Positions 5,149 to 53,417 of a stretch of DNA of 64,000 nt are shown piece after piece. The position numbers and the translations under genes are program-made. Under the pieces are notes generated by a model, which saw only the letters and a program-made list of their open reading frames with translations, was not told where the DNA came from and did no database searches. How positions within the stretch are numbered: the first letter of the stretch is position 1; each line of letters starts with the position of its first letter. This DNA comes from an uncultured Candidatus Saccharibacteria bacterium. GTDB lineage: Bacteria; Patescibacteriota; Minisyncoccia; Phycocordibacterales; UBA918. Location: the NCBI GenBank assembly GCA_964350735.1, contig CAYGKO010000002.1:155566-219565 (forward strand), read 5' to 3'.

Positions 5149-5151
5149 TTT

Positions 5152-6021: not shown

Positions 6022-6032
6022 AAGCAACTCGG

Positions 6033-10866: not shown

Positions 10867-10965
10867 CACTCAATTCTTCCCACAACATTAGTTTCCATCC
10901 TTAATTAATGACAGAACGGTTGATGGTGCAAAGCTATGCAGAACTAAGAAAACATCGCACATTCA

Positions 10966-11697: not shown

Positions 11698-11748
11698 ACG
11701 GTAATAATTGATTAGTAATGAATCTTATACAGTATAATATATTTAATT

Positions 11749-14495: not shown

Positions 14496-14509
14496 GGTAT
14501 ACTTAATTC

Positions 14510-15427: not shown

Positions 15428-15434
15428 ATACTGT

Positions 15435-35306: not shown

Positions 35307-35930
35307 TTAAGGAGCATGACTAAGTGGTAGCGTCAACGCAAGGGCTTCAAGTAGCATTTTCTTTGACCCACCCCGTCTACGCAAGTTTGTATCAATAAAA
35401 ATAAGTTCCTGTGTTTCCCTAGCTGTATTTGAAGTAATCTTCGAACAATACTGCTGCAAACCAGTATGCATGGAATCTATCCAGTGCGTATCTTTTTTCT
35501 TGGTTTTTTCACCAACCACAGTCAGTCGATCTGCATATGATAAAGATAAAAAATCAGAAAATGATTCGTCAGCTGTATCGATACCTTGATCTGCCAAGTG
35601 ATCAAGCTGTAAGCGTGAACGTAAAGTTGGCAACAAAATAGATTCTCTTGGGAGGCTGACATAAAAAACACTGGTCTGAGGTGGATCTTCGAACAGTTTC
35701 AACAGTGCGTTTTGGGCTTCGGTTGTAATCGTGTTAGTACGCAGCACAAAGGCCCGAACTTTATTTGTCAGTGGTCGCACTGTTGCCTGCTGAGAAAGTG
35801 CTCGAGCGTCACCAATACCAAATGCATCGATAAAAACATGCTCAACGTCAGTACCGGGTGTTCGTATTTCTTCAGGCAAAATCTCAAGCGAAAAATCCTG
35901 TGAGATATACAGAGTGGCGTGATGTTTCAT
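35307..35930 (-). CDS. holB: DNA polymerase III delta-prime-like clamp-loader subunit, short form without a P-loop.
   Basis: NALLKLFEDPPQTSVFYVSLPRESILLPTLRSRLQ matches the clamp-loader box VII / sensor region (nalLKtLEEPP ... ll.TI.SRc). No Walker A is present. 207 aa. Confidence 0.5.
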   Translation of the reverse strand: MKHHATLYISQDFSLEILPEEIRTPGTDVEHVFIDAFGIGDARALSQQATVRPLTNKVRAFVLRTNTITTEAQNALLKLFEDPPQTSVFYVSLPRESILLPTLRSRLQLDHLADQGIDTADESFSDFLSLSYADRLTVVGEKTKKKDTHWIDSMHTGLQQYCSKITSNTARETQELIFIDTNLRRRGGSKKMLLEALALTLPLSHAP

Positions 35931-35940: not shown

Positions 35941-37350
35941 TTACTCAGCCTTTGGTTGCTTGGCAAGAATAGCTGTGATGACTCGTCGTAGATAATGTTC
36001 AAAAGTCTCACCAATCTCATGCACCATCCCTTGCTCATAGCGCCACCCATTCATGTAATCAGTCAGACTTTGTTTCACCTCCGTCGAAGCCCCTTCAAAT
36101 CGCCCTGAAACCACTGAAGACATTGGCAACGCTGCCAAAGTTTTATACATTGGGTGTTCACGTCCGCTTGGACCAGTTCCAAACAGTCCACTACTCTTGA
36201 ACAAACTCCACTCAGAAAGTAATTGATCCAGGCCATTAGTAATCTTTGGATCCATAAGCGGGTCTGCATTAGTGGAAGCTGGGGCGACTTCAGGAACTGG
36301 GGTATTTTTCTCTTTTTCAATAGATTCATTCTGTAGATCAGTAGCTAACGACTTCAAGCCGCCTGCACTTGGTACCGCTGGTTCTGGTGAGTCTTGCAGT
36401 GGTTCAAGACTGACTTCAGGCGCAGAAGGTTCTGACTTAGGAACAGTGGCTGGAGTTACTGGTTCTGGAACTGGATCAGCGACTGGTGCTGAAATCGGTT
36501 CAGCTGCCGTAACTTCTGGAGCTGGTGTGGGTTCTACTGATTTAGCTGCGGCTGCGAAACCTGAAACCGGTGCGGCAGTCATAGTCGCGGCTACTGGTGT
36601 TGGCGTAGTCTCAATAGTATCCAAAGGGGTTTCTTTGAGAGTTTTCTCAACGGACTCGTAAGCGGTTTCAAGGCGCTGCATTGCTGCAGTGACGGCAGAC
36701 GATTCGCCGCCATGCACTTTCTTCATTGCATCAAGTAAAGCATTCATGTACTCACGTCCCACTTCGTTATTAGCATCAATCAGATTAACCGGGTTTCCCA
36801 CCTTTTCGTTTACCAGCTTCTTAATTTCTTTAATTCTACCCAGGTGATCTACTGGAGAATCAGGCACCGGAACCGCAGGCACAGGGTCAACTTCTGAAGC
36901 AGAACTAACTACGTCTTCAGTTTGAACAACTTCTTCTTTTACCGTCGTTGGCTTCAAATCTGGCAGCGGAGCAGCTGTTGGTGTTGGTGTTGGTGTTGTC
37001 GGCAAGTTTTGTGCAAAAATTGGCTTCGGGCGAGCAGAACCAAATGAAGCTCGCGGTAATACTGGTTCTTCAGCTTTTAACGACACTGTTTGCGCCTCGT
37101 TATTACTTCTACTATCAAAAACCTCAACGTTATCGATGAGTGTTAAGTTCTCAGTAATTTGCGTAAAAAGATTATGATTTGGGGTAAACACATAATCCAG
37201 AATCATGTTGCGTGTTACATTCTGTAACTCAGGGTCCATGGCTTTGCCTCGGACATAGTTAAGCAGCGCCAGCGCATCAGTTTGGCTAGAAAGATCAAAA
37301 GATTTTTTGGCAACAGCTCCAGCTGATGCTCCAAGAACACTACCCTGCAT
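35941..37350 (-). CDS. Hypothetical protein with long Pro/Thr/Ala/Val-rich linkers. Last gene of the VirB4-like operon.
   Basis: Low-complexity PTTPTPTPTAAPLP and PVPEPVTPATVP segments flank a helical central domain. No TM was seen. Confidence 0.4.
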   Translation of the reverse strand: MQGSVLGASAGAVAKKSFDLSSQTDALALLNYVRGKAMDPELQNVTRNMILDYVFTPNHNLFTQITENLTLIDNVEVFDSRSNNEAQTVSLKAEEPVLPRASFGSARPKPIFAQNLPTTPTPTPTAAPLPDLKPTTVKEEVVQTEDVVSSASEVDPVPAVPVPDSPVDHLGRIKEIKKLVNEKVGNPVNLIDANNEVGREYMNALLDAMKKVHGGESSAVTAAMQRLETAYESVEKTLKETPLDTIETTPTPVAATMTAAPVSGFAAAAKSVEPTPAPEVTAAEPISAPVADPVPEPVTPATVPKSEPSAPEVSLEPLQDSPEPAVPSAGGLKSLATDLQNESIEKEKNTPVPEVAPASTNADPLMDPKITNGLDQLLSEWSLFKSSGLFGTGPSGREHPMYKTLAALPMSSVVSGRFEGASTEVKQSLTDYMNGWRYEQGMVHEIGETFEHYLRRVITAILAKQPKAE

Positions 37351-37413
37351 GTACGAAGATTATATCACAGCTGTTTTACGAGCCCTGCATCTTTACCGCA
37401 GCCAATCTGTGCA

Positions 37414-37731
37414 TTATTCTTCTAAACCTTCAGTCGCTTCAATCATTTCTGATTTTAGAGTAGTCACATGCTTTTCAAGTAGGGAACTAAACGTAGGGTA
37501 CGATTTAATCAAATGTTCGAGCATAACCTCTGTTGCAGGCTCAGTTTCAAGATAGTGTTCCAAGGCAGTTTGCTGCCCTTCATTAAGTGACGCTGAAAAA
37601 TCGACCAGTACCGCACTCATCACTGTGCTTCCTATTTGGGCAATAAACGCTTCTTGCTCGATTGGTGTTAAACCCTGCATGCCTAGCAGCGTGACTATTT
37701 CTTGATCAAGAACTGAAGTTGTATCGTTCAT
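37414..37731 (-). CDS. Small acidic helical protein (105 aa) immediately downstream of the 1436-aa protein. Chaperone-like.
   Basis: Predicted pI is very acidic. No TM. The gap to the upstream gene is 15 nt. Confidence 0.35.
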   Translation of the reverse strand: MNDTTSVLDQEIVTLLGMQGLTPIEQEAFIAQIGSTVMSAVLVDFSASLNEGQQTALEHYLETEPATEVMLEHLIKSYPTFSSLLEKHVTTLKSEMIEATEGLEE

Positions 37732-37745
37732 AAAGGTATTTAAGG

Positions 37746-40700
37746 TTATTTATTAAACGTCATCTTTTGATTATTGGTGTCATAGCCAAGCACAAGCTGT
37801 CCTTGTACAGATTTATTTTCAAGATACATTCCTAGATTCATCGAACCGTCTGTTTTTATAAATCCATTATCTGTATCGGCTTTCACATCAGCTAACATAG
37901 CCTGAAGATTAGTGCGCACCGCTTCAGGCAGTTTACTAATCTGCGTATCATTAAGCTCAATACCCTGTGCCGATAAACCAGTTATTTCAATATCGGCTAA
38001 TGCTTTTGTAGTAAGTCCTGATTCCACGCTCATCAGGCTCGCTAGCGCCATATCACGTTCTGTTAAAGCCTTGAATAGCCGCTCGATACTCGCTGCGTCA
38101 GTCACATCGTCTGACAAACGACTTACTAGTTCTCGGCCCGTATCAAATAAATTGGGTATAAACTGAGACAGGTTTTCGTTGTATCCATCACGAACTCGTT
38201 CTGTGATTTCAGCAATACTTACTTCAACAGCCGCTCGATCAGGACCCGCCGCATCAGCCCCAGCTGTTTCATAAGTCGATTCAGTCGTTGCCACCGGTTG
38301 ATTTTCAAGCGCCTCTACCAGAGGTGTTAAATTAATCGCTTCCTGTGGAATAACGTTGATGTTAGTTACATTAGCATTCATCGCCTGCATAGCTTCAGTA
38401 TTAGCTCCCACAGCTGCAATCGCCGCGTCACGCTGAACTTCTGTCACACCTGGCATATTTGATTCAAGATACCTCTGGAAAAGCTTTGTCACATCATCTC
38501 CTGACCTCGCTACGGGAGCAATCTCTGTTGGATTAATAACCGGCGTGACTTCCGTTGATACTGGTGAAGATGCTGCGTTTTCTGCAGCATAGGATAGCTC
38601 TGAAATCTTATTCATGATTGGGCTTAGATCATACGTCTCTCCTTCTTGTACTATGTCAATATTATTCGTACCAAGCGCCTCTGGGTTACTACGGAAGCTT
38701 TCAATCGCCGCTACTCGTATTTCTCGTGAGGTCTCTCCCCAAGCAGGATCGTCTGTTTCAGCTAATTTTTTAAGGATCTGATCTACTGCTTCAGTAATAT
38801 TGCAGTTTTTCGGCATGGTGAAGTTAAATGCTTCAGAGTTTTTACCAACAGTAATTTCAAGTGGCTCTATAACTTCACCTTCGGGGCCAACTGAAGTTAC
38901 GCGCTCAACCGCAGCAGGCGCAGCGGCCGCATCTGGAGAGACCGGCCTTGCCGTTGGTGCCGGAGCTTTGTCTGTTGTCACAGCACTCTGCCCTTCTAGA
39001 CCGACAACTCGCTGAACAGCAGGACCTTCAGTCAAGATATTTTCATAACGATTTCCATCAATAATTGCTGTCACTTTAGTTAATGAACCATCTGGAACAA
39101 ATGTGACTCCGGTGATATTGGTTTCAGGAGCAGCCAACAAGTTCGCATCCACGTTATCAGGGATTAAATCTGGATTGATTCGCAATCCAACACCATACAC
39201 TGATGACACTCTATCCAAACTTCCTCCAATCTGCCCCACCTCTCCTCCTTCGATACCAAACTGTCTAAGTGCCGAGATCGGTCTGTTCTCTGAATATACG
39301 ATCGAATGTGCTTCAGGAGATCCCGTGATTTGAGTAAAGCCAGCGTATGGTGAGTCTATAAGTTCCATTGCCCGCTGCTCCATTCCAGGAGACACACTAA
39401 TCCCCTCAAGCGGATCGACCGCAGTTGCTTCGAGTAGATTAGTGTTTTCAAGCTTTGGTGAAGTAGCCACGCTACTACTACCTGTTAGTTTCTCTAGAGA
39501 AACCGGGTCTTTTGCAGATCCCAAACCGTAGCCTGACCCATCCAAAAGATGTACCTCATACCCGTCAGCAGCAGAGCTCAAATAAACACTGCCAATTTCA
39601 TCAGGCACCACTGATGAAAAATTTGCACTAAGAGACAGGATTCTCTCAAGCTGCTCCGACCGAAGACCCACCAAATCATACAGACCAGGTCCATGCAGAT
39701 ACATCCCGGAAAAATTAAAAGCCCCTGAACTCAGAAGCGGATCACTAAACTTAGTAGTGTCGAATTCTTTCTCAGCTGCAAATGCCAGTATGTTGCGCTG
39801 ACCAATCCTCAGCATTCCCACTGTTTGACCTTCCAAGGTCCCTGACGTTACAGAAATTGGCAAACCTTCAATCACTAGCCCATCTTCTGTTTTGTATAAA
39901 TTCAAACCACCTGACATACCGTCAAGTCTGACATCCAATGATCCGAGATTCTGAAAACCACTTCCGTCCGCTGCAGTTCCATTATCTATCTGACCCTCAC
40001 CAGTAAAGGTTAGGTATGCGAATGTGAGACCCTCCACACCTGACACCTTTGATACTTGCCCGGTAACAGATTGCGGCTGCAGTTCTCCATTTACTAATTT
40101 AAAATCAACAAAATCAACTCCTTGTGCATTTTTCAACGTATCAGAAGCTGTACTCCCCATTAACTCCGCCAACCTTGTCATATCAAGTGTCCGGTCTGTA
40201 GTATATTCATACTCACCAGCACCACCATTACGATTATCAAGCATCACCAGTCCGTTTTCTGACACAGTCACGTTCTCAGCTTCAATACCAAACTGTGCAA
40301 ATAGTTCTTTAGCCGCTTCTGGTGACACACCACCCGACAGCCTGTCTAGCAGCTCAGTTTTACTGATTAGAGACTCAGCGCCGGTTACTTCTATATCCGC
40401 TCCACTACCTGCAACATTCTCGACAGCTCCACCTGCAGGTACTGTCGTGCCCTCACCTAAAATCGCTGCAAGATCAGCTGCGTCCACTGTTCCTGCAGCA
40501 GCTTCAGGTGCTGAGTTTTCTGCTGTCGCCGGGTCAGTTAACTGATCTAATCGAACTTGTTGCGCTGAGGTTTCATCTGTGTAGATCAACATATTCTCAA
40601 CCGATCCGTCTGACTTCACGCTGATACTGGCGATTGAGTAGTCTGATAACGCTTTACCTTCTGGAGTGAGTTTTGTTAGAAGCCCAGAACTTGGATCTAA

Positions 40701-42056
40701 TGTAACTCCGTCAGCTCGCTCAATCATGAAAGCAAATCCATCAGGATTTTCAGAAACTGTCATATTCACCTTTGCGTCCGCGTGTAAATCAATCTGCAAA
40801 TCAGGAATCAAACTTGTAATAGTCTGGGCACTTACATTTTCTGCTGCCAAAAAATTAATTGAATCAGCGCCACCTTCTGCAAACACTTGCAAATCAGCTT
40901 CACCAAACAGTGGCTGGAGCTCGCGAGTGATACCATCTAAATCTCTGGGATTAATCTCTTGTGCGAACAGTTCAGTAAGCTGTTGACGTGGAGTTTGTAC
41001 TTCAGCTTCGGGCACGGCTTCTCCTGCTGCAGTTGATTCAGCTTCAGCCTCTGATGCCGTGCCTAAGATAGCAGTCAGATCTGCAGCACTTACCACACCA
41101 GCAGGTGTAGTTTCAGATCCTGCTAGCGACTCTTGGGCTGCGGCTGACGGTGCCACAAAATCTACGACCCCAGACCACGTTGCGGAAGCTGTTTCTTTTC
41201 CTGCATCAAGTAGTGCTTGGCGTCCGGCTCCATCAAACGCCACTGAGTCAGTCATGAACGCTGTACCGATAGCATACCCAAGCCCTTTAGTCATGGCTTG
41301 AATATCACCAGAACGAACCGCTTTTGCCCAACCTTGCAGCCCTTGCACAAAGACAGTATTAGCATTCACTTTAATCTGTTCAGCTTTTTCACGAGCATGC
41401 TGCGCGTGCCGCTCGGCCAGCACTTGATTGACTCGCTTCAGTGTATCGACCGCTGCCCGGGCAACCGTAGCCGCTCCAGCACCAAGTCCTCCAGTAGCCA
41501 AACCAAGCGCTAAGATAATTGGGGTGGTGGCTTTCTCGGCAACATTGAGTCGTTGGTTCCAGTCCTCATTGCTAATTGATTTTTGAATCCCTTCTCGAGC
41601 GCCAGCATGACGAGTACGGTTGGCCCACAGAATCTGTGCCAAAACTTTACGCTGTTCAGCGGCTTCTGCTTTTGGTAGCTGATCAATCACGCTCCGAAGT
41701 TCTGAGAGCGTCTGTAACATCTCAATACGCTCACTACTGTCAACTCGTGCTGCTTCATCTTCTCCCCAGACACCCTTTTCTGTACGCAACTTTTTTGCTA
41801 CCTGTAGCATCTTTGCCCGACGTTCGACTAGATTAAACGCCAGTTGCTCGTGCTCCTGCATGAAACTACTCATTTCTTTAGCTTCTCCACGTGCTTTCCA
41901 AGCCGCTACTCCAGTGGCATTTTCAATAAGTGCGCGACCAAGCTTTGCACCACCTTCCATGACGCGTTTTCGGTCGAGCGCCAAAAGTCGCTGCAGCCAT
42001 GATGACTTACCTACTGTTTCTGCTGCCGATGATGACATTGTTCCTTCAAGAGCCAT
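37746..42056 (-). CDS. Giant lineage-specific protein (1436 aa) with one N-proximal hydrophobic segment. Probably a surface or secreted component of the T4SS-like locus.
   Basis: Uninterrupted 4.3-kb ORF, translationally coupled to its neighbours. Hydrophobic stretch TTPIILALGLATGGLGAGAATVARAA. The remainder is A/T/S/G/E-rich with beta-rich segments. Confidence 0.5.
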   Translation of the reverse strand: MALEGTMSSSAAETVGKSSWLQRLLALDRKRVMEGGAKLGRALIENATGVAAWKARGEAKEMSSFMQEHEQLAFNLVERRAKMLQVAKKLRTEKGVWGEDEAARVDSSERIEMLQTLSELRSVIDQLPKAEAAEQRKVLAQILWANRTRHAGAREGIQKSISNEDWNQRLNVAEKATTPIILALGLATGGLGAGAATVARAAVDTLKRVNQVLAERHAQHAREKAEQIKVNANTVFVQGLQGWAKAVRSGDIQAMTKGLGYAIGTAFMTDSVAFDGAGRQALLDAGKETASATWSGVVDFVAPSAAAQESLAGSETTPAGVVSAADLTAILGTASEAEAESTAAGEAVPEAEVQTPRQQLTELFAQEINPRDLDGITRELQPLFGEADLQVFAEGGADSINFLAAENVSAQTITSLIPDLQIDLHADAKVNMTVSENPDGFAFMIERADGVTLDPSSGLLTKLTPEGKALSDYSIASISVKSDGSVENMLIYTDETSAQQVRLDQLTDPATAENSAPEAAAGTVDAADLAAILGEGTTVPAGGAVENVAGSGADIEVTGAESLISKTELLDRLSGGVSPEAAKELFAQFGIEAENVTVSENGLVMLDNRNGGAGEYEYTTDRTLDMTRLAELMGSTASDTLKNAQGVDFVDFKLVNGELQPQSVTGQVSKVSGVEGLTFAYLTFTGEGQIDNGTAADGSGFQNLGSLDVRLDGMSGGLNLYKTEDGLVIEGLPISVTSGTLEGQTVGMLRIGQRNILAFAAEKEFDTTKFSDPLLSSGAFNFSGMYLHGPGLYDLVGLRSEQLERILSLSANFSSVVPDEIGSVYLSSAADGYEVHLLDGSGYGLGSAKDPVSLEKLTGSSSVATSPKLENTNLLEATAVDPLEGISVSPGMEQRAMELIDSPYAGFTQITGSPEAHSIVYSENRPISALRQFGIEGGEVGQIGGSLDRVSSVYGVGLRINPDLIPDNVDANLLAAPETNITGVTFVPDGSLTKVTAIIDGNRYENILTEGPAVQRVVGLEGQSAVTTDKAPAPTARPVSPDAAAAPAAVERVTSVGPEGEVIEPLEITVGKNSEAFNFTMPKNCNITEAVDQILKKLAETDDPAWGETSREIRVAAIESFRSNPEALGTNNIDIVQEGETYDLSPIMNKISELSYAAENAASSPVSTEVTPVINPTEIAPVARSGDDVTKLFQRYLESNMPGVTEVQRDAAIAAVGANTEAMQAMNANVTNINVIPQEAINLTPLVEALENQPVATTESTYETAGADAAGPDRAAVEVSIAEITERVRDGYNENLSQFIPNLFDTGRELVSRLSDDVTDAASIERLFKALTERDMALASLMSVESGLTTKALADIEITGLSAQGIELNDTQISKLPEAVRTNLQAMLADVKADTDNGFIKTDGSMNLGMYLENKSVQGQLVLGYDTNNQKMTFNK

Positions 42057-42058
42057 AG

Positions 42059-42352
42059 CTATGTAGTTGGTTGTTTAAGATCTGCTAATAACGCATTCAG
42101 TTCAGCTGTAGTCATTGCATCAATATCTGCGGCCTCTGCTTGGTATTCAGGAATTGATTCCGCAGCCTTTTGTTCAAGCACAGCCCGATATACAAGATCT
42201 ACCATTTCCGCCAAATGCTCTGGCTCCATTGTTTTGGCAAGTTCTACAAACACATCTTTAATATACGGTGGCACATCAAGCTCATCCAAAAGCCAGCCAA
42301 ACACTCGTCCTAGTGCCTCTAAATCTTGTACCGCTTGAGGATCAGAATTCAT
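42059..42352 (-). CDS. Small acidic helical protein (97 aa) between the 922-aa and 1436-aa genes. Chaperone-like.
   Basis: 97 aa, D/E-rich, no TM. 3-nt and 7-nt gaps to its neighbours indicate translational coupling. Confidence 0.35.
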   Translation of the reverse strand: MNSDPQAVQDLEALGRVFGWLLDELDVPPYIKDVFVELAKTMEPEHLAEMVDLVYRAVLEQKAAESIPEYQAEAADIDAMTTAELNALLADLKQPTT

Positions 42353-42358
42353 AAGATG

Positions 42359-45127
42359 TTATTTCTTTAAGCCATTAATGTACTCTTGTAAATCAGGCAC
42401 AGCCTCAGCAAAGCCATTGATAGCAGAAAGTGCGTCATACACTTGTTGGGCCTTTTCTGGACCAGAATCGCCCAACAAAGCTTTGATGAGATTCTGCTCA
42501 AGCTCTGGTGTGAGACCAGTAACATTTTCTGGTGTAATAAATTGATTCAGTCGGTCAGGAATATCGTTTTTGATCAGTTCACCAACATTTGGAGCCTCGC
42601 CAAGTGACACTTCCACTGGCGCAGAAGCTGTGTTTGCTGGAATGTCAGGAGCAGTATTTATGGGTGGAGAAGTCACACTTGCTTCATCAACTGCAGCGAT
42701 ATTGAAAGATTGTTCTCCGTCAAGCTGTTTAATCTCAGGCTCTGGAGCATCAGCGATCTCAGGCAATGGCGCGGGTGCCTCAGTAACTGGCCGCGGTTCA
42801 GGAGCAGGAGCCTGACTCGGAGCTGCTTCAGCAACCACCTTTGATACCTCCTCTACAACTTCAGGATCCGTTTCTCCCACCCAACCTACAAATAAATCTT
42901 TGGCAGACTCTAACGCACTTCGACCAAATACTGCTCCCGCTGCTGCCCCAGCTGCGGCTCCTGCTCCGGTAACAATTGCATTCGTAGCCAGAAATCCCCA
43001 AGAGTTGGGTTCATTAATTTTTTTCATCAACCGGAGCTCAGCTGTATCAGCAGCTTTATCTAACTTATCTTGAGCCAATAACGCTGGATTTTTTTGCCAC
43101 TGCTGTGTCCAGTGCGGCCTGAACTGATCTTCCATTCTGGCCCGTAAAGTATTTTGGTACCTTCGCCGACCAAATATCCGTCGAAACCTTAGTAGAAGTA
43201 CTGCAGCAAACGCACTACCCTCCGTCGCTCCCTGTGCTACTTCAGCTTCCATCCCTGCTATTCCATCAGCCCCATATTCGCGAGTAATAAATGGCGCTGC
43301 AACAGCACCCATCGCAACCGCAATTCCAGCCGCTCGGCTCAATGACATATACGTTCTCTTTTCATCTGCTTCTTTACCCCTGCCCCACAGTAAGAGGCTT
43401 CCAAAACGATTGTTATCAATACTATTTGCTTTTATTTGAGCCCTTTTTTCATAGTCTTGCACCACTGTAAAACCAACCAGGTTCGCACGTAGATTCTCTC
43501 GCAACACTTTCTTGTTTTTACCACCCCACAATTTTACACCTTTAGTTTTCTTTACTTCATCAATAAACGGAACGACTGTTTCTAATGTGTTTTTAATATA
43601 GGCATACCGCGCAGCTTTATACGCTGTGTATTCAGTCTCTTCTGCTTCATTTAAATCTCTACCTGCTTTGCACACATCTGACCAAGTAGTGAGCATGTCA
43701 TTTCGTTTTAAAAGGTACTCATCTTTAAACTTTTGCACTTCGGCTTCAATTTGCGGAACTCGATCTAACAAATCCCGTACAGCTGGCATGGATTCATCCT
43801 TGAACTGATTTTTAACCATTTGTTTAAGATCAAATTCGGCTGGCAGCGACGGGCCTTCGGCCAATCCTTCAGCGTTTTCAACCACAGTAGGAGTCGAGAC
43901 TGACGCTGGTTCAGACCTTTCTTCACCCCCACTATCTACACCATCACCTTCAAACGTCGGAGTTACTGTAGGTCCTAGATCCAAATCATCCGCGGCAACG
44001 GGAAGTACTGGCTCAGTTTGCCCCTGACTTGTCTCAGCAGCACCATCAATTTTGTCGAGCATACTTTTGCCATGCTCGATATTCTCATCAGTACGTGTAA
44101 GCAAACTAGCAAAGTCAGTGAGGAAAATAAGCAGTTCTTCGGTTTCATCAGAAGACAAAGCCTCAATTCCTGCAGCCACTTCTGTTCGCTTGAGGGCAGT
44201 ATAGTCTGATTCAAACCCACGTAATATTTCATACAGCTTACGTTTAGTTTCTCCTTCTTCCAGATCTTCATATGAGGACGTAAGCGAATCATACACACTA
44301 TCTATCACCCTTAATCTGTTAGCTACAATCTCACGAAGTTCTTCGCGGGTAGTTTGTATGTTAGATTCAGGCGTATGCAGTTTGGTCAGCAGAGCTATAG
44401 AGAGCATTGATGATCCTATTTCTTCTAACTCTCTGTCTTGTGAAACACCCTCTCCACCACTCTGTTTCTCTTCAAGTAACTCAGCCAAATCTTGAGTTAA
44501 CATACCCAATTCTTGACTACTACCAATAGTAGTCTGAATATCTGGTCGCTGTAGTGCTGATTTTAATTCATTATAAAATTTTTGAAGATCTTCTGCAGAA
44601 ATATGTGGACCAGCTGCTGTCTCAGTTACTGGTGGGGGCTCCACCCCCCACAACGTATCAAGCCCAAAGTATTCCAGTTCTTCAATTTCTACACCTTCAG
44701 ATTCTACACTAGCAGCTGCATCTTGTGGGGAATTTGTAAATTCAGGATCACTGACAGTTACCGCTTGTTGACGTCGGCCAGCCCCTGGTTTTGGTGCTGA
44801 CTTTACTGCTTTTGGCATCAAAATAGCAGCTGGAGCTGGCTCTTCATCAACAGCTTCGTCCGCATTACCATGCTCAAAAAATTGCTTAATTCGAGTAAGC
44901 TGGTCTAAGGTACAAACTGCTTCCGCGAGAAGATCCGGCGGAAACGCCTCCATTAATTTACTAGCCGCTTCTGAACTAACCGCAAACTGCATAATCGCAG
45001 TTTTAATTGCATTAGTATGTTCCCTACTTTCTTCAGGACTATTCAAAAGACTCTGCAGATCATCTGGCAAGGATATTTTTTCAGCTTCTCGATTATGTAT
45101 TACTTCATTCATACTGTTTTTGTTCAC
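42359..45127 (-). CDS. Large lineage-specific protein (922 aa) with two hydrophobic, Gly/Ala-rich membrane-like segments and a Pro-rich C-terminal region.
   Basis: Hydrophobic segments AAGIAVAMGAVAAPFI and GFLATNAIVTGAGAAAGAAAGAVFG. PAPEPRPVTEAPAPLPE linker. ATGA overlap with the upstream 640-aa gene. Confidence 0.45.
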   Translation of the reverse strand: MNKNSMNEVIHNREAEKISLPDDLQSLLNSPEESREHTNAIKTAIMQFAVSSEAASKLMEAFPPDLLAEAVCTLDQLTRIKQFFEHGNADEAVDEEPAPAAILMPKAVKSAPKPGAGRRQQAVTVSDPEFTNSPQDAAASVESEGVEIEELEYFGLDTLWGVEPPPVTETAAGPHISAEDLQKFYNELKSALQRPDIQTTIGSSQELGMLTQDLAELLEEKQSGGEGVSQDRELEEIGSSMLSIALLTKLHTPESNIQTTREELREIVANRLRVIDSVYDSLTSSYEDLEEGETKRKLYEILRGFESDYTALKRTEVAAGIEALSSDETEELLIFLTDFASLLTRTDENIEHGKSMLDKIDGAAETSQGQTEPVLPVAADDLDLGPTVTPTFEGDGVDSGGEERSEPASVSTPTVVENAEGLAEGPSLPAEFDLKQMVKNQFKDESMPAVRDLLDRVPQIEAEVQKFKDEYLLKRNDMLTTWSDVCKAGRDLNEAEETEYTAYKAARYAYIKNTLETVVPFIDEVKKTKGVKLWGGKNKKVLRENLRANLVGFTVVQDYEKRAQIKANSIDNNRFGSLLLWGRGKEADEKRTYMSLSRAAGIAVAMGAVAAPFITREYGADGIAGMEAEVAQGATEGSAFAAVLLLRFRRIFGRRRYQNTLRARMEDQFRPHWTQQWQKNPALLAQDKLDKAADTAELRLMKKINEPNSWGFLATNAIVTGAGAAAGAAAGAVFGRSALESAKDLFVGWVGETDPEVVEEVSKVVAEAAPSQAPAPEPRPVTEAPAPLPEIADAPEPEIKQLDGEQSFNIAAVDEASVTSPPINTAPDIPANTASAPVEVSLGEAPNVGELIKNDIPDRLNQFITPENVTGLTPELEQNLIKALLGDSGPEKAQQVYDALSAINGFAEAVPDLQEYINGLKK

Positions 45128-47046
45128 TCACTTAAATCAACATCCTGTTCACGGAAAGCTGTAATAGCATCGTTCAGATCTTTAAATGCTGCGGTCATTG
45201 CAGTAAATACCTGCTGGGCTGTCTCGAGCTCAACATCAGCATTTCCTTTCATTAATCCTTCAAAAGTTTTTTTAGCAGTCTCTAGTGCACTGAATGCGTT
45301 AAAATACGGATCGAATGTTTGTAGCTCATTGTCTTTACCCTTCAAATCACCGAGCGCTGCATCGTGTGCTTCCTGCAACTGCGCCAGATAGTATGTAGCA
45401 GTTTCTACTCGCGTATCCTGGTCGGTTAGATCTGGACAAGCAAACTGGGGCGTTTCTGATTCAATTTCTGTTCGATCAATAGCTGCCAAATGGTCCATTG
45501 GATCAGGCGGTAAGTCTCCAGAAACGGCCATATTTTCTAAAGTCGCACGCAGCTTCAAGAAACGTTGCGCAGACCCGAGCGCTTCTTGTCGCACTTGACC
45601 ACGTCCATTGCGTAGCTCTTGCAAGCGCTTATCACTACGCTTCATACCTTTAGCAATTTCTGCCTGAATTTGCTCTTCTTGTGCTCGTAATTTAGTTATC
45701 ACTTGCATTAGCGCCGGCGCGTAGGAACGTCTAATAATTTCTTCTGAAAGACCTATATGCTTGAGTACAGCAACCATATCAGCGTAGGCGTGAATATCAT
45801 CCTTAACCCCTGCCTCGTCTCTAAAGAAACCTTTACCAGAATCAAACTGCGACTCGAGTTCTGCCAATTTTTCTGGTGAATAATTACCCGTCAAATTCTC
45901 ATAAAAGGCACGGTATTCTGCCCCTGAAGACACACCAAAGCGTGGACGTAAGCGTAAATGAGGTATATCAACCAAATCAGAATTTATTTCACCAGTTGAA
46001 ATAGTGTGGATATACTGATCCGCCTTTCCGCGCACAATGATGTCGCGCATAACCTCGGTTAGTCGATCGAGGGCGGTTTTCAGTGCTACATTTCTTTCTT
46101 CTACCTGACGACGATCCCACTTTTTTCCTGTATGTAGTCGCTTAGCTTCTCGCAGCTCATTAGTGACTTGTCTAATAACTCGTTCGAATATTTGCTGTTT
46201 TCCCAGGCGATATGCTTGAGCGTTCAGATCTTCTGGATCGATCGGGAATGTTTTTTCGTACAAACGATTACACGCATCTTTAATTGCATCAGGGTCAGGC
46301 AATCGCCCTGATACATGAAAAGGATCAGGAACTTGCTCGTCATTAAGTAAATTAGCCTCGAAGTGATCGAGCGACCCTTCTTGATAGTTTTTATTCGCAT
46401 CAAGGTGTTCTGGCAACCCAGCATATTCTCCTTCTGGAATAGTGAAGAGATTTAAGCGTGAGTTTGGCCACTGTTTAGTATCTAGCAGGCGCTCATCAAT
46501 ACCATACACACTGGGATTAGTAATAATCTCCCGCATGCGTTCAACTAAAGTATCCTGTGCCGCTTTTATGTCAGTTTGTAGTGCGCGCTTCTCCGCTCTA
46601 TCTTTCACCTCCTTCGCTGTGCTGACCCCTTCTTTTATTTCATCAAAATATGGATCAAGGAAATACTGCACCAAATGATTTCGGACACTGGCCACCGCAA
46701 TACCTAAATCATCTTTGAGCAACTCCCGGAAAAATTTCGTTGCTGTCCCTCGGCCAAGAAACGCCCCCAGTTCATCACGCAGTGGATGTTGGTCTTTCTG
46801 ATTTAAAAACAACCCTTCATTGGCCAACAGTCGTCGCCTAAACTCGGTTCGTTTTGCAGTTTCTGACAGGCTTTTTTCGACATTGTCCTCAGGTGAGTCT
46901 GAAGCACCTCCTACACCAACCTCACCTTTTTGAACCTCAGGATCTTCAGGACGATCAGCAGTCCCAGTCCCTGACTCAATAACTTCAGGGTCTTTAGCTA
47001 CTGGAATAATTTGCGGCCCTGGTTCGTTTCCCCATTTCAATTTCAT
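45124..47046 (-). CDS. Hypothetical soluble alpha-helical protein (640 aa) immediately downstream of the VirB4-like ATPase.
   Basis: No TM and no HuH or P-loop motifs. Highly charged. 13-nt gap to the ATPase gene. Confidence 0.45.
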   Translation of the reverse strand: MKLKWGNEPGPQIIPVAKDPEVIESGTGTADRPEDPEVQKGEVGVGGASDSPEDNVEKSLSETAKRTEFRRRLLANEGLFLNQKDQHPLRDELGAFLGRGTATKFFRELLKDDLGIAVASVRNHLVQYFLDPYFDEIKEGVSTAKEVKDRAEKRALQTDIKAAQDTLVERMREIITNPSVYGIDERLLDTKQWPNSRLNLFTIPEGEYAGLPEHLDANKNYQEGSLDHFEANLLNDEQVPDPFHVSGRLPDPDAIKDACNRLYEKTFPIDPEDLNAQAYRLGKQQIFERVIRQVTNELREAKRLHTGKKWDRRQVEERNVALKTALDRLTEVMRDIIVRGKADQYIHTISTGEINSDLVDIPHLRLRPRFGVSSGAEYRAFYENLTGNYSPEKLAELESQFDSGKGFFRDEAGVKDDIHAYADMVAVLKHIGLSEEIIRRSYAPALMQVITKLRAQEEQIQAEIAKGMKRSDKRLQELRNGRGQVRQEALGSAQRFLKLRATLENMAVSGDLPPDPMDHLAAIDRTEIESETPQFACPDLTDQDTRVETATYYLAQLQEAHDAALGDLKGKDNELQTFDPYFNAFSALETAKKTFEGLMKGNADVELETAQQVFTAMTAAFKDLNDAITAFREQDVDLSE

Positions 47047-47058
47047 AATTAATTTTAA

Positions 47059-49848
47059 TTATACCAGACCGGCAAACGGGTTATCGCCTGGCTGTGGTTT
47101 AGGGGGGTCTTCTTTTTTGTAGCGTTCGGCGATTTCGGCTTCGATTTCAGCGCGGGGGCGGCCGTAGCGATCGAGGCTCTTTTGGATCATAGTCTGCACG
47201 TGGGCCTGGTCACTTTCTGGTGGAGGCTCGGTCGAGACACTAAAGGGTTTGGTTGGGACGCCGTTGGCCAAAATCTTCATGTAGGCCTGGTAGTTCGGAA
47301 TATTCATAATGTCACCTGCGTCGAAAGTTGGTTCAAGTTGCTTCTCAAGGAAATGTCCGTCTTCAGGACCAACCCGAAAGATCGACATCGACCCGACGTT
47401 GCCAAACACCGCATCTTTGATTGAGTCATCCAGCTGAGCAATAAACTGGTGCGCCATCGTAAGGCCAAGCTTATACTTACGAGCTTCAGACAAAATTGAC
47501 GCGATCGCCGGGGTAGAGACGTTTTGGAACTCATCGATATGAAGGAAAAATGGCGGGAAGCCTTTGGTCGGATCATCCACTCGCGACAATGCCGCCATCA
47601 GGATCTTCCCCACGAAGATCATACCGATGAGGTTCGCATTGATCTCGCCAAGACGACCCTTCGAAAGATTGATCAAAAGAATTTTTCGCTCGTCCATAAT
47701 CTGCCGGAAATTAAAGGCACTATCTTGCTGTCCGATAATCGGCCGCATGTAGTCGTTGGCGGTAAAGACGTCAAACTTCGACACGATGTACGGCACGATA
47801 TTTTCGAGACTGGCTTCCCCACCCGCTTTAGTCGCAATCTCGCGCCAGAATTGAATCACCACCGGATTGGTGGCTTTTTCAAGCTTCATGCGGCGATACT
47901 TGGCGTCAGCCATTACTCGAGAAATATCCATCAGCGTATTACCACTGTCCGGATCGTCCATCACGAGCAGGGTCGCATTACGGAAATACTGCTCAAACAT
48001 CGGCCCCATCGATTCAGGATTGCCACCGTACAGTTTTTGGAAAATTGAAAAGAGTTCGTTTACCACGAACGTCTTTTGCTCTGGCTTCGTGCGGTCGTAC
48101 TCAAGCATATTGAGTCCGATCACTTGCTCAAGGTTAGACGGGTCAAAGTAGATTACATCATCGACTCGCTCAGGTGGAATAGCTCCAAGCACATCCTGAA
48201 TGTCGCTCCCGTGCGGGTCGATCATACACACACCATGTCCTTGCTGAATATCCTGCACAACCATGTTCTGCATAAAGACCGACTTACCGGTACCGGTCTG
48301 TCCGATGATGTAGAAGTGGCGCATCCGATCGTTTTCGGTGACGTAAATATCTTTATTGACGCCTCGGTGATTATTCTTTCCAAGCAGCGTCCCATCAGTT
48401 GGCATCTCGGTTGGCGCCGCTGCGGTCTTCGCACGCGACTGCTTAAATTGTGGACTCGAGTCAATTCCGCTCCCCGGGAAATGCAACATAATAGCCAACT
48501 CCTCAAGCGAGAGCGGCAGTATGTTTTCTTTGCTGAACTCGCGGAATGAATAGGCTTTAATAGCCCGTTTCAGCGCTGTGCCAGTCGGGTGCAACCACTT
48601 CAGACGGTTAGCTCGAGTGTTCTCGAATTGATTAAAGGTGGCTTCAATCTCAGACAAAATTTTCTTCGCCTGCCCCTCGGTCTTCGCTGACACTGCAATC
48701 CGAATATTGCTATCAACAATCGGTTTACTGCGTTTGTGAGTAATCAGCTCGATTGTGTCTTGATCGACATCGCTCTTTTCAAAGCCGGTATCGTCATTCT
48801 TTGATTTGTTGAAAATCATGTCTTTGAGACCAACATACAGTTCGCCCCCGAGCGTATCACTCGCTATTGCGTCTTTCGGTCGCATCCCATCACGGATTTT
48901 CTTAATGATGGTTTCGTAGCGATCGGTATAGCGGGTCGGGGTACTTTTTATAGAAATCTGCAATGACGCACCACCCCCATCACGCTCAATCTTGGAAAAC
49001 GCATTTAAAAGCACCGCCAGTGGGTCCGACTGAAAACTTTCCGCTTCACGCAGTGGATAGACCGGGTGTTTTTGGAGCGCAGCTACTGACACTAAAGAAA
49101 CCCCTTCGTCGACGAAGATGTTGTAGTCGTGCACTTGTTGTGTGAGGACTGCGTTGGGGAAAAGCGAGAGGATTTGTTTTTCAAACAAATCAATAAACTC
49201 ATCGGGTACTGATACGTAAAATACAATATCGTCACTCTTGTCCGACACCCCGATCTCGAGCACGTAATGGTCCTTCCCCTTCCCATGACCCACACTCTGC
49301 ATACCCGAGTAAAACTGCTCCATCATTGAAATGATCTCAGCCAATTGCTTCTCGCGCCCCTGTTCTTCTGGCACTTCTGGTAACGATACTTCAAAAAGCG
49401 TCATATGCAGCACCTGCCATGGTGGAATTCCTTCTTTTACCCCCTGCAGCTCTTTACCTGATTTAATGTGCTCGATCAGTAAGCGATGGACTTCGTCGGT
49501 CGTGAAGGCAGTTGATGATTTTTCTACTACCGAAAGGGCATTACGAATCCCCTCTCTCATGGCGACTTCAATAATCTCTGCTGCCGGGTCAGCCGCGGTC
49601 TCTACCTGAGCCACTGATTCCGCCAACCCAGCCTCGTCCATCTGCTGTTCTTGTTTCAATACCGTGTCCGGCGTGAAGGTACCATACTCATGCAGTACCT
49701 GCTTCCCCACGGTTTCAAAATCAGCCTGATCCACCTCCGCCGGACTGCGCTCCAGCACCTCCCGTTCTTTCTCAGCAATCTGGGCACGCAAAAAAGCGAT
49801 CTCTTCTTCCGGAGTCGAAAATTGTTGTTGCGGAACCCCCTCTTTCAT
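47059..49848 (-). CDS. virB4: VirB4/TrbE/TraC-like type IV secretion or conjugation ATPase.
   Basis: Walker A YIIGQTGTGKS in the C-terminal half. Walker B region FFLHIDEFQNV. Downstream ARKYKLGLTMAHQ matches the VirB4 RKy..(s/t)Q motif. There is a ~450-aa N-terminal domain. Confidence 0.6.
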   Translation of the reverse strand: MKEGVPQQQFSTPEEEIAFLRAQIAEKEREVLERSPAEVDQADFETVGKQVLHEYGTFTPDTVLKQEQQMDEAGLAESVAQVETAADPAAEIIEVAMREGIRNALSVVEKSSTAFTTDEVHRLLIEHIKSGKELQGVKEGIPPWQVLHMTLFEVSLPEVPEEQGREKQLAEIISMMEQFYSGMQSVGHGKGKDHYVLEIGVSDKSDDIVFYVSVPDEFIDLFEKQILSLFPNAVLTQQVHDYNIFVDEGVSLVSVAALQKHPVYPLREAESFQSDPLAVLLNAFSKIERDGGGASLQISIKSTPTRYTDRYETIIKKIRDGMRPKDAIASDTLGGELYVGLKDMIFNKSKNDDTGFEKSDVDQDTIELITHKRSKPIVDSNIRIAVSAKTEGQAKKILSEIEATFNQFENTRANRLKWLHPTGTALKRAIKAYSFREFSKENILPLSLEELAIMLHFPGSGIDSSPQFKQSRAKTAAAPTEMPTDGTLLGKNNHRGVNKDIYVTENDRMRHFYIIGQTGTGKSVFMQNMVVQDIQQGHGVCMIDPHGSDIQDVLGAIPPERVDDVIYFDPSNLEQVIGLNMLEYDRTKPEQKTFVVNELFSIFQKLYGGNPESMGPMFEQYFRNATLLVMDDPDSGNTLMDISRVMADAKYRRMKLEKATNPVVIQFWREIATKAGGEASLENIVPYIVSKFDVFTANDYMRPIIGQQDSAFNFRQIMDERKILLINLSKGRLGEINANLIGMIFVGKILMAALSRVDDPTKGFPPFFLHIDEFQNVSTPAIASILSEARKYKLGLTMAHQFIAQLDDSIKDAVFGNVGSMSIFRVGPEDGHFLEKQLEPTFDAGDIMNIPNYQAYMKILANGVPTKPFSVSTEPPPESDQAHVQTMIQKSLDRYGRPRAEIEAEIAERYKKEDPPKPQPGDNPFAGLV

Positions 49849-49913: not shown

Positions 49914-50363
49914 CTATTTTATTTTACCAAGATCTTCATTAACCCAAGTTGCTCTAAAGGCCTCCAGTTCTTCCGTCATATTTTCTGTTGGTGACATTGC
50001 TTTATAAACATAAATTTTCTTTCGTAAAAAATATGCTACTCCAATCTCTATAGTAGTCGCATTGCCGATGTATTGCGACTTGCCCTTTTTAGGTAAATTT
50101 AATATCAGCACTGCATCTGAAGCTTCAATTTTATTGTAGTGGTCTCTGTAAGCATCAAGCTCAACTGCATGTGCTGCCTCAGCGGCACTATCTTTTAGAT
50201 TCGGTGAAGCAATATGCATGTCAGTGTCTAAAGGCACTAACACTTCATGACCATATGATTCTAGCTTTGTTTTACACTCATTCATTTGAACTGCAAAACT
50301 CATACTACCGCAAATAGTAATTTTCATATCAAATACTCTAACTAATTCAAGACTAATTACCAA
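49914..50363 (-). CDS. Nucleoside 2-deoxyribosyltransferase-like (flavodoxin-like fold) protein. The true start is probably the internal ATG (MKITICGS...).
   Basis: KITICGSMSF ... VLVP ... ASDAVLILNLP ... GNATTIEIGVAYFLRKKIYVY resembles the NDT/DUF4406 pattern (kiYlAGp ... D..d.vva.l ... sGtafElGyAyalgKPv). Confidence 0.4.
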   Translation of the reverse strand: MVISLELVRVFDMKITICGSMSFAVQMNECKTKLESYGHEVLVPLDTDMHIASPNLKDSAAEAAHAVELDAYRDHYNKIEASDAVLILNLPKKGKSQYIGNATTIEIGVAYFLRKKIYVYKAMSPTENMTEELEAFRATWVNEDLGKIK

Positions 50364-50482
50364 ACGCTGATTTTGTAGGCAAATACGCGGAATGGCAAAA
50401 TTTATGAAGGAGACGTATGACTATACGGTGACTGAGAAAATTGTAGTCATGACAAAGTAGTTGTCACAAAATCAGCGTTTGG
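50360..50482. repeat. 17-bp perfect inverted repeat (CCAAACGCTGATTTTGT / ACAAAATCAGCGTTTGG) bracketing the whole mreB2 to NDT-like intergenic region.
   Basis: Arms at 50360-50376 and 50466-50482. The spacer contains further short palindromes (GACTATAC / GTAGTCATGAC). Confidence 0.5.
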
Positions 50483-51559: not shown

Positions 51560-51580
51560 TAGCAGATTTGCTATAGTATG
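51560..51580. promoter_or_regulatory. Near-palindrome TATAGCAGATTTGCTATA plus TATAGT -10-like element upstream of the HTH-MurA gene. Candidate autoregulatory operator.
   Basis: 9/9 versus 8/9 inverted half-sites, located within 20 nt of the start codon of a gene that encodes an XRE HTH. Confidence 0.3.
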
Positions 51581-53341: not shown

Positions 53342-53395
53342 CCGGGTGGCAGAGCTTCTGCCACCCGGGCCGTCGATTTCAGGCGGCCTTTTTTC
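53342..53395 (+). terminator. Compound terminator after the small ORF.
   Basis: CCGGGTGGCAGA-GCT-TCTGCCACCCGG perfect stem. A second weaker stem GGCCG..CGGCC is followed by TTTTTTCTTATTT. Confidence 0.5.
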
Positions 53396-53417
53396 TTATT
53401 TGCTACAATACCCTTCT

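Follow-up and report, generated by a model that had tools for sequence, protein, structure and literature searches.

A predicted coupling-protein-class ATPase heads a conserved operon with fast-diversifying partner genes in Paceibacteria

The seven-gene operon and its conservation

We analysed a 64,000-nucleotide stretch of DNA (hereafter the window) from a Patescibacteria contig (CAYGKO010000002.1, assembly GCA_964350735.1), in which an ATPase gene heads a minus-strand operon with six partner genes, followed closely by holB. A preliminary description of this DNA had placed seven minus-strand open reading frames (ORFs) here, and their coordinates and sizes are borne out. The genes, in operon order, are as follows:

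47059-49848, minus strand: ATPase gene, 929 aa; predicted soluble protein of the coupling-protein class (VirD4/DetA-MobB) with an N-terminal DUF8128 half; core of the conserved module
45124-47046, minus strand: p640 gene, 640 aa; acidic, soluble; first partner after the ATPase
42359-45127, minus strand: p922 gene, 922 aa, GTG start; acidic, with two Gly/Ala-rich hydrophobic segments
42059-42352, minus strand: p97 gene, 97 aa; acidic, downstream of p922
37746-42056, minus strand: p1436 gene, 1436 aa; acidic, with one Gly/Ala-rich hydrophobic segment
37414-37731, minus strand: p105 gene, 105 aa; acidic and helical, directly before p469
35941-37350, minus strand: p469 gene, 469 aa; member of a conserved family with three helical domains and Pro-rich linkers
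35307-35930, minus strand: holB (DNA polymerase III delta'), Pfam DNA_pol3_delta2; 10 nt past p469

The successive junctions measure 12 nt, a 4-nt overlap, 6 nt, 2 nt, 14 nt and 63 nt. The genes are thus tightly packed as had been claimed, but the range given for their spacing (gaps of 3-15 nt or overlaps) does not extend to the 63 nt before p469. Only 10 nt separate p469 from holB, and the operon transcript therefore probably continues into holB-frr-rseP. A scan for promoters and terminators returned nothing above chance in the operon, and no terminator-like site beyond chance in the p469-holB interval. All seven products are strongly acidic, and no Sec-type or signal-peptide-like N-terminus was seen in any of them.

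More than 2,500 homologues of the ATPase were found, the best 120 of which are 64-90% identical to it, and scanning genomes at species level yielded at least 584 loci under the titles Kaiserbacteria, Nomurabacteria, Campbellbacteria, Taylorbacteria, Paceibacteria and Parcubacteria. Because the homologous loci are titled Kaiserbacteria and kin, the host is a Paceibacterium near Kaiserbacteria and not a Saccharibacterium, the organism assumed earlier. Many metagenome-assembled genomes (MAGs) titled 'uncultured Candidatus Saccharibacteria' (L005, L011, L013, L017 and others; L numbers denote individual loci) also carry the locus, with 50-67% ATPase identity; such titles of co-assembly bins appear to be generic and unsuitable for taxonomy.

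The gene order around the operon is conserved as mreB, ATPase, partners, holB, frr, rseP, proS, mreB, mreC and PBP2 (a penicillin-binding protein, PBP), and the part from the first mreB through the ATPase and partners to holB-frr-rseP is found in 44 loci. In these loci the interval between the ATPase and holB is graded, holding p469 only (e.g. L001 and L084), a large variable gene of the 'big' family followed by a gene of ~100 aa and p469, or expanded sets, so that the number of intervening genes ranges from 1 to 6. Where the ATPase is only ~50% identical, the trio of ATPase, 'big' gene and p105-family gene is kept and p469 and holB are replaced by other genes. The locus L094 (GCA_041156645.1) has a seven-gene layout identical to that of the window (924-583-968-102-1623-105-554 aa, then holB). 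The occurrence of the same layout in L094 and of reduced forms in dozens of genomes means that the arrangement is not due to chance, and the co-occurrence of partner genes with the ATPase, for which a synteny comparison had been proposed, is seen across related genomes.

Conservation within the operon is uneven. Between the window and L094 the ATPase is 66% identical, p97 68%, p105 56% and p469 38-62%, against 40-45% for p1436, 28% for p922 and 24% for p640. In the 39 loci with all markers, the ATPase is, at the median, 63% identical to that of the window; the corresponding values are 60% for ribosome recycling factor (RRF), 58% for RseP, 84% for MreB and 38% for HolB. The ATPase is therefore conserved at the housekeeping level, comparably to RRF. 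The module is chromosomal, core and vertically inherited in Paceibacteria. One MAG (GFS_12610; L003 and L010) has two ATPase operons on different contigs, with 68% and 65% identity and different partner sets, which are either paralogous operons or the product of a mixed bin.

The ATPase: class, anatomy and relatives

The 929-aa protein can be divided into the following regions:

49444-49848, minus strand: residues 1-135, N-terminal helical extension specific to Patescibacteria proteins, with helices at 13-129 in the AlphaFold2 (AF2) model
48409-49443, minus strand: residues 136-480, alpha/beta N-terminal domain (DUF8128), probably like the N-terminal domain of VirB4
48280-48303, minus strand: residues 516-523, Walker A motif GQTGTGKS, from the translation
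47689-48084, minus strand: residues 589-720, all-alpha insertion between Walker A and Walker B, with six helices at 590-705 in the AF2 model
47239-47688, minus strand: residues 721-870, second half of the nucleotide-binding domain, with Walker B HIDEF at 770-774 and ARKYKLGLTMAHQ at 789-801

Sequence models group the C-terminal half of the protein (residues 480-870) with type IV coupling proteins (T4CPs), i.e. the substrate-receptor ATPases of type IV secretion systems (T4SSs). The Pfam models T4SS-DNA_transf (PF02534; 31.3 bits against a cut-off of 20.1, residues 481-809) and TrwB_AAD_bind (PF10412; 21.5 bits against 20.5) exceed their cut-offs, as does the generic DUF87 domain, and the TraG-D_C and TrwB alignments span the stretch of residues 721-870. 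The top NCBIfam matches are TraD and a VirD4-like family, with the equivalog and subfamily cut-offs (TraD, CD1115) all widely missed. The single sequence retrieved no match among PDB sequences; a profile built from 30 homologues retrieved TrwB and DotL as best. The family profile matches proteins in coupling position with E values of 6e-16 (a Staphylococcus aureus pJRA307-1 protein), 2e-41 (a Bacillus subtilis plasmid protein), 1.5e-63 (an Embleya T4CP) and 8.5e-78 (Sulfitobacter), and the AAA_10/VirB4 ATPases of those clusters with only 0.02 and 5e-4.

The protein had previously been called a VirB4/TrbE-type ATPase, and a test with VirB4 (PF03135) and CagE profiles had been suggested. The VirB4 models fall below their cut-offs: TIGR00929 gives 15.4 bits against 643 (E 0.004) and AAA_10 (PF12846) 15.2 bits against 27.5 (E 0.012), both over the P-loop only, and PF03135 (CagE_TrbE_VirB) is not among the reported matches. 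Nor did the protein show the marks of FtsK/SpoIIIE proteins, EssC/EccC included (PF01580 above cut-off; gamma or FHA/transmembrane modules), while the HerA equivalog (NF040819) gives 13.6 bits against a cut-off of 970. Because the family profile strongly favours relaxase-linked coupling proteins over the VirB4s of the same clusters, the ATPase is assigned, by sequence, to the coupling-protein class (T4CP/VirD4/DetA-MobB) in the VirB4/VirD4 branch of FtsK-HerA ATPases and not to VirB4. The preliminary description was right that an ATPase of the T4SS superfamily heads a tightly packed operon: its best matches are T4SS families, its neighbours are not ordinary repeat proteins and their co-occurrence with it is conserved. 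Any likeness to VirB4 appears limited to a two-domain fold.

The claimed Walker A motif and the RKY-type motif ARKYKLGLTMAHQ are both present and are invariant in an alignment of 30 homologues, as are D772, E773, R790, K791, Y792, H800 and Q801. The ATPase is predicted to be catalytically intact, hexameric-type and soluble. The N-terminal half of its homologues carries the annotation PF26449 (DUF8128), and in the AF2 model, which is of moderate quality (mean predicted local distance difference test score (pLDDT) of 68, with the N-terminal domain mostly at 75-90), this half probably resembles the N-terminal domain of VirB4, which would give a two-domain VirB4-like fold.

Conservation differs strongly along the protein. 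The N-terminal extension (residues 1-135) is 54% identical in close homologues and 28% in distant ones, and plasmid and phage homologues align only from residue ~190-205 on. Conservation of the ATPase peaks in the all-alpha insertion, with 91.5% identity in close homologues and 74.5% in homologues that are less than 54% identical overall, values that exceed those of the nucleotide-binding core in both sets. In classical coupling proteins, the all-alpha domain is the variable, substrate-specific part. The alignments thus give a pattern that is the reverse of the classical one.

We compared the ATPase with several known systems. (i) Its plasmid relatives are 'DUF87' proteins of 860-886 aa, which head conjugation clusters of B. 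subtilis and S. aureus plasmids and align with residues ~200-895 of the window protein; they directly precede a Replic_Relax relaxase, and TcpE and a separate AAA_10 VirB4 lie further downstream. Two of them, of DetA/MobB type (886 aa in B. subtilis NZ_CP032854 and 861 aa in S. aureus pJRA307-1), share the soluble DUF8128-like plus DUF87/T4CP-like architecture without transmembrane helices and give the family-profile E values of 2e-41 and 6e-16 cited above, at an identity of only 21-23%. Their relaxase is of MOB-C type, whereas the window ATPase is chromosomal, has no relaxase, is followed by giant orphans and bears an extra N-terminal helical extension of ~190 aa. The gene arrangement of these plasmids is like that of pWBG4, where detA (a VirD4/MobB-type coupling protein) is followed by detB (a MOB-C relaxase) (PMC4993578). 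(ii) The classical VirD4 family (i.e. TrwB of R388, DotL, Cag-beta and the Embleya T4CP) shares the nucleotide-binding domain with its all-alpha insertion. The Embleya T4CP, from a T4SS cluster with PrgI, a VirB4-like ATPase, the T4CP, a relaxase and NlpC/P60, is 29% identical to the window protein, and its C-terminal half, taken by itself, shares 29-34% identity with coupling proteins of an actinomycete T4SS cluster and of proteobacterial plasmids. By contrast with this family, the window ATPase has no N-terminal transmembrane domain, its all-alpha part is the most conserved one, and it is not linked to a relaxase or T4SS. (iii) VirB4 proteins (TrwK of R388 and monoderm AAA_10 proteins) appear, from the model, to share the overall fold of a soluble alpha/beta N-terminal domain and a C-terminal ATPase; the window protein, however, fails all VirB4 sequence models, has no VirB3, VirB6 or VirB8 neighbour and does not lie at the dnaA-linked locus.

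Homologues of the ATPase also occur in phages and on proteobacterial plasmids. The phage proteins (PHROG 5156) are homologous over residues ~190-916, with an E value of 1e-85 to the PHROG profile and 22-24% identity; their genes lie in early or replication regions and have no p105-, p469- or 'big'-like neighbours. PHROG 5156 includes proteins of Bacillus and Geobacillus phages, i.e. SPO1 gp27.4, phage G gp156, TP-84 gp48 and 0105phi7-2 gp32 (L088, 5797-8061; L089, 5644-8187). One of the family is annotated 'DNA helicase or translocase' on the basis of an HHpred match to TrwK, and the published account of phage 0105phi7-2 contains nothing on gp32. Stand-alone proteins of ~395 aa that comprise the ATPase and all-alpha parts (L090, 7025-8212, on a Sulfitobacter plasmid; H54, on a Bradyrhizobium plasmid) are the closest non-Patescibacteria relatives of the C-terminal half (33-34% identity, profile E 8.5e-78). 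These plasmids are non-mobilizable, and the neighbouring genes encode a recombinase, DUF3768 and a transposase.

Within Patescibacteria, a recent survey (Quinonero-Coronel et al. 2025, PMC12102498) reported T4CP-profile matches in 96% of genomes, about two per genome; it counted 5,713 T4CP homologues in 2,918 genomes, no more than 148 of them close to virB4, and the authors propose that these homologues 'may have been exapted'. The ATPase family described here almost certainly belongs to this population of 'orphan' T4CP homologues, for which that study gives no family definition, domain architecture, neighbourhood or partners; it does not report the operon.

The partner proteins and the wider window

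None of the six partners, and none of ten partner proteins from other loci, matched a family in Pfam, NCBIfam, PADLOC or PHROG. These scans agree with the earlier statement that VirB6/8/9/10/11 and relaxase motifs are not recognisable in the partners. Clustering defined three partner families (i.e. p469, p105 and 'big'), and three hydrophobic segments were located in the giants:

43286-43342, minus strand: p922 segment 1, residues 596-614, LSRAAGIAVAMGAVAAPFI, Kyte-Doolittle value 1.62
42923-42979, minus strand: p922 segment 2, residues 717-735, AIVTGAGAAAGAAAGAVFG, Kyte-Doolittle value 1.54, with GxxxGxxxGxxxG glycine-zipper spacing
41460-41519, minus strand: p1436 segment, residues 180-199, IILALGLATGGLGAGAATVA, Kyte-Doolittle value 1.79, kept in the L094 orthologue at residues 178-201

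The two segments of p922 and the one of p1436 claimed earlier are thus real, albeit with marginal Kyte-Doolittle values of 1.5-1.8, and they are positionally kept in the L094 orthologues.

Members of the 'big' family (270-1850 aa) are conserved at both ends, in an N-terminal domain of ~140 aa and a C-terminal one of ~190 aa, and variable in between. Among the 28 members of at least 750 aa, 17 have one or two Gly/Ala-rich hydrophobic segments, ~90-120 residues apart. The giants of the window are related to this family to different degrees. A search of 5.8 billion clusters gave a single homologue of p1436 (P0244, 1623 aa, 40% identity), in the L094 genome; a profile of these two sequences gives co-linear matches to 'big' members (L026, E 3e-7; L052, E 1e-3), and p1436 occupies the 'big' position immediately before a p105-family gene. 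The p922 protein is a near-orphan with two matches among 1.84 billion representatives, namely itself and a 968-aa protein (34% identity over residues 410-798); this 968-aa protein, the orthologue in L094, retains both hydrophobic segments, and the architecture of p922 parallels the hydrophobic-segment hallmark of the 'big' family. Homologues of p640 were found only in L003 (26%) and L094 (24%), and a profile of the three sequences gives weak matches to N-terminal parts of 'big' proteins (L018, E 2e-5; L019, E 4e-3). No single-sequence search (phmmer, jackhmmer, hmmsearch or hhalign) connected p922, p97 or p1436 with the 'big' or p105 families. From profile matches and gene position, we suggest that p1436 is a divergent member of the 'big' family and that the giants are positional equivalents of this hypervariable family. 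The description of the operon as one of 'giant lineage-specific proteins' therefore fits p640, p922 and p1436, which are near-orphans, and does not fit p105 and p469, which belong to widespread families; the giants themselves have equivalents in the 'big' family. We also considered p640 as a divergent relaxase and rejected this, as it is unrelated to Replic_Relax.

The small acidic proteins evolve more slowly. The p97 protein (net charge -14) is 68% identical to a 102-aa protein in the same position of L094, while its giant neighbour is only 28% identical. Homologues of p105 occur in 33 of 82 loci, each directly after a large variable gene, and reach lineages in which the ATPase is only ~50% identical; p105 has no Pfam match. 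No relation between p97 and the p105 family was detectable (hhalign probability <2%). Neither protein matches the WXG100 family at E <= 0.1; p105 has no Trp, and p97 has a single Trp, in FGWLL. Small acidic helical proteins of ~100 aa encoded beside large Sec-less substrates are known from chaperone or adaptor-effector pairs such as IcmS/IcmW-DotL, VirE1/VirE2 and the class I chaperones of type III secretion systems (T3SSs). By analogy with these T4SS and T3SS pairs, p97 and p105, which are likewise small, acidic, predicted to be helical and slower-evolving beside Sec-less giants, are adaptor or chaperone candidates. They differ in that their genes follow that of the large partner, whereas chaperone genes precede it. 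Residues 27-70 of p97 have a sub-threshold similarity to YqeY/GatB_Yqey (E 0.007), too weak to use, and a similar sub-threshold match recurs at residues 17-101 of P0102, the N-terminus of an ATPase homologue with the JGI name 'YqeY' (E 0.09). We did not retain a YqeY-like domain in p97 or in the ATPase N-terminus, as these matches are sub-threshold only.

The p469 family comprises 863 homologues, none with a Pfam match. It is present in 40 loci, each time directly upstream of holB, and is confined to a Kaiserbacteria-like clade. Its alignment shows three conserved blocks, between which lie Pro-rich linkers that vary in length, and the AF2 model of p469 has small helical domains at residues 16-80, 169-240 and 365-465 (pLDDT ~88-95) with disordered linkers (<50). 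Foldseek, a check proposed for this protein, gave generic helical bundles only against the PDB (E >0.3), i.e. no significant fold match.

The operon lies among cell-envelope and housekeeping genes, which make up the rest of the window: mraW, two PBPs, Mur ligases, uppS, aspS, greA, mreBC, proS, rseP, frr and holB, and further a murA-like gene, fmt, fpg and ddl. The locus is flanked by two MreB paralogues, both on the minus strand and both conserved in relatives, one at 31108-32184 beside mreC-PBP2 and one at 50472-51485 upstream of the ATPase operon. Between the latter and the operon, 65 nt upstream of the ATPase, is a nucleoside 2-deoxyribosyltransferase-like gene of nucleotide salvage (49914-50363, minus strand), which has the same position in the closest relative, L083. 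Further upstream, an HTH_3 domain is fused to an EPSP-synthase/MurA-like enzyme (51578-53086, plus strand), a fusion conserved in relatives. A 654-aa protein without a Pfam match (53346-55310, plus strand) has syntenic orthologues of 628-631 aa in all relatives examined (L001, L002 and L083-L085), situated between def/fmt and the MurA-like gene and conserved in the clade. An aspartyl/asparaginyl-tRNA synthetase with a C-terminal DUF2000 is encoded at 25728-27626 on the minus strand. Positions 1-16000 have a GC content of 0.37-0.43, compared to 0.44-0.50 elsewhere, and contain an IS200-like Y1 transposase (10132-10800, minus strand) and a 1197-aa TPR and PIN protein of 'PIN-TPR-GreABC' type (6033-9626, plus strand); this stretch may have been acquired as an island or may encode a toxin-like system.

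Possible functions of the module

The identity and anatomy of the module are well supported, and we hold them to be very probably correct. Its function can be stated with less assurance. The reading that we favour, with a probability of about 0.4, is that the operon encodes a domesticated orphan coupling-protein motor, small proteins that resemble adaptors, and rapidly diversifying cargo or tether proteins directed to the membrane. The ATPase would act as an ATP-driven receptor and translocation motor, as in coupling proteins. The small acidic proteins (i.e. p97 and p105) would serve as adaptors or chaperones; their rate of change is much lower than that of the giants beside them, which is what one would expect of parts bound to stay in contact with a conserved motor. 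The giants would be fast-diversifying cargo or membrane tethers that enter or cross the membrane without Sec signals, most plausibly by way of the VirB4-VirB6-pilin T4SS that these genomes encode near dnaA and that is without a coupling protein of its own.

This T4SS (VirB4, TrsD, PrgI/VirB3, VirB6 and VirB2 pilins) has been described near dnaA/dnaN in Paceibacteria (PMC12102498). The operon, situated between mreB and holB-frr-rseP, is not at that locus and contains none of its components. Two other carriers of the operon, L057 and L060, are listed as VirB4-positive (PMC12102498, Table S1), and the operon and a VirB4 T4SS locus therefore co-exist.

Several observations weigh against a motor that serves the giants. 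No VirB4/AAA_10, VirB3, VirB6, VirB8, PrgI, pilin or relaxase gene was found in the operon or in a scan that covered every window ORF from 150 aa upward. With no channel, pilin or relaxase gene nearby, the link to the distant T4SS is therefore one that we infer. In the one Patescibacterium with transposon-sequencing data, a member of the Saccharimonadia, T4SS genes were reported to be essential for epibiotic growth and the T4CP homologue not to be (PMC12102498). Some genomes contain only the ATPase, a p469-like gene and holB, with no giant or p105 and with the ATPase equally conserved; the giants are therefore not its only or essential substrates. The ATPase has no N-terminal transmembrane anchor and no hydrophobic segment outside its core. 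The DetA-like plasmid homologues likewise have no such anchor, and in the window ATPase the membrane anchor of coupling proteins is probably replaced by the VirB4-like N-terminal domain (DUF8128). The near-invariant all-alpha insertion fits an invariant ligand (e.g. nucleic acid) better than a hypervariable cargo. Finally, the Kyte-Doolittle values of the giants are marginal for true transmembrane helices, the adaptor or chaperone role of p97 and p105 is read from size, charge, position and evolutionary rate only, and the ATPase model is of moderate quality.

An alternative explanation, which we regard as possible though tentative, is that the ATPase is a nucleic-acid translocase that retains the ancestral function of coupling proteins and pumps DNA or RNA, having been recruited in Paceibacteria for a housekeeping purpose, either in the uptake of host or environmental nucleic acid or in chromosome handling at division, with the giants and p469 as membrane or divisome tethers and scaffolds. 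It accords with the plasmid homologues of the same architecture directly upstream of Replic_Relax relaxases, with the phage homologues (TP-84 gp48, 0105phi7-2 gp32 and SPO1 gp27.4) in early, replication or recombination regions, and with the near-invariance of the all-alpha insertion, as expected for an invariant ligand. The RRF- and RseP-level conservation of the ATPase, the co-oriented holB downstream, the surrounding mreB, mreC, PBP2 and dcw genes and the dispensability of the giants in some genomes also agree with it. Patescibacteria moreover depend on scavenging for their nucleotides, and host RNA serves as food for one member that has been cultivated (bioRxiv 10.64898/2026.06.21.733656). 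However, neither a DNA-binding nor a gamma-like domain was recognised in the protein, which also has no membrane anchor or channel partner; its linkage to holB and mreB could be mere conserved gene order; and the persistent coupling of hypervariable giants and small partners to the ATPase would be left unexplained.

A more specific proposal, which we consider doubtful, is that the DUF8128 ATPase is the motor of a housekeeping nucleic-acid import, i.e. a coupling protein working 'in reverse'. Host RNA or DNA would be taken in via the T4SS pilus or via a pore formed by glycine-zipper giants, the all-alpha insertion would provide the binding site, and the giants would be host-facing or membrane-inserting proteins that track host diversity.

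Four further explanations are each much less likely than a motor for the giants or a nucleic-acid translocase. First, the operon might not be a functional unit at all, the ATPase acting alone or with p469 and the giants being unrelated fast-evolving genes that gather in a permissive ATPase-holB interval. The number (1 to 6) and size of the genes at this site vary, and the giants have no detectable domains and are absent from some genomes. However, the order of a 'big' gene, a gene of ~100 aa and (where present) p469 is kept over a large evolutionary distance with translational-coupling spacing, p105-family genes occur only directly after a 'big' gene, and the small partners are under strong constraint. 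We therefore consider a coincidence of gene order unlikely.

Second, and with a still lower probability, the operon might encode a self-contained, VirB4/TrbE-headed T4SS-like secretion or adhesion apparatus in which the giants replace the VirB6/8/9/10 channel parts. Some partners do have potentially membrane-seated hydrophobic segments, and monoderm VirB4s are also without transmembrane helices. But VirB4 models fail on the ATPase and its family profile favours coupling proteins by 14-75 orders of magnitude; there is no polytopic VirB6-like protein, VirB3, VirB8 or pilin; and the giants are missing from some ATPase-bearing genomes. The earlier idea of a 'minimal or divergent T4SS-like apparatus' is thus not sustained by the operon or the window, which contain no channel, pilin or VirB3-like genes, and the recognised T4SS with a true VirB4 lies elsewhere, near dnaA, and is co-present in operon-bearing genomes (PMC12102498).

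Least likely of all are two further explanations, both of which we consider highly improbable. A type VII-like system, in which an FtsK/EssC-type ATPase exports WXG100-like proteins of ~100 aa and large LXG-like substrates, would suit a monoderm host with helical ~100-aa proteins beside large Sec-less proteins, but there is no WXG100 or LXG match, no W-x-G motif and no EssA-, EssB- or EsaA-like membrane gene. A HerA-type defence or repair ATPase (cf. Sir2-HerA, DUF4297-HerA, the H proteins of Dnd/Ssp and mad8 of MADS) is suggested by DUF87 above cut-off, a PADLOC mad8 match (E 1e-13) and weak HerA, DndH and SspH matches, but the ATPase is core, syntenic and vertically inherited among housekeeping genes and not in an island, has no nuclease, Sir2 or NurA partner, and scores very far below the HerA equivalog cut-off with far stronger matches to coupling proteins.

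The existence of orphan T4CP homologues in Patescibacteria is already known from the literature, in which we found no description of DUF8128 or of DUF87 ATPases in this group. What appears to be undescribed is the DUF8128 plus DUF87 family itself, its probable VirB4-like fold, its position between mreB and holB, the two accessory families, the hairpin giants and the kinship with DetA/MobB proteins and PHROG 5156. The 'T4CP homologues' of Patescibacteria thereby gain a definable family with a fixed neighbourhood, which is linked to DetA/MobB-type plasmid coupling proteins and to phage PHROG 5156, and a tempting VirB4 annotation is corrected.

A large part of bacterial diversity belongs to Patescibacteria, most of which appear to live on other cells. 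Their T4SS is among the few systems shown to be essential for the epibiotic lifestyle, and no coupling protein is encoded alongside it. The locus described here offers a testable candidate module, comprising an orphan ATPase conserved at the housekeeping level, two accessory families and the genome's fastest-evolving proteins, which carry glycine-zipper hairpins. Should the motor serve the giants, these would be prime effector or surface-protein candidates for host interaction. Should it serve nucleic acid, it may form part of a long-sought uptake route, and import by a coupling protein in reverse, if true, would supply the missing uptake mechanism for nucleotide-auxotrophic Patescibacteria.

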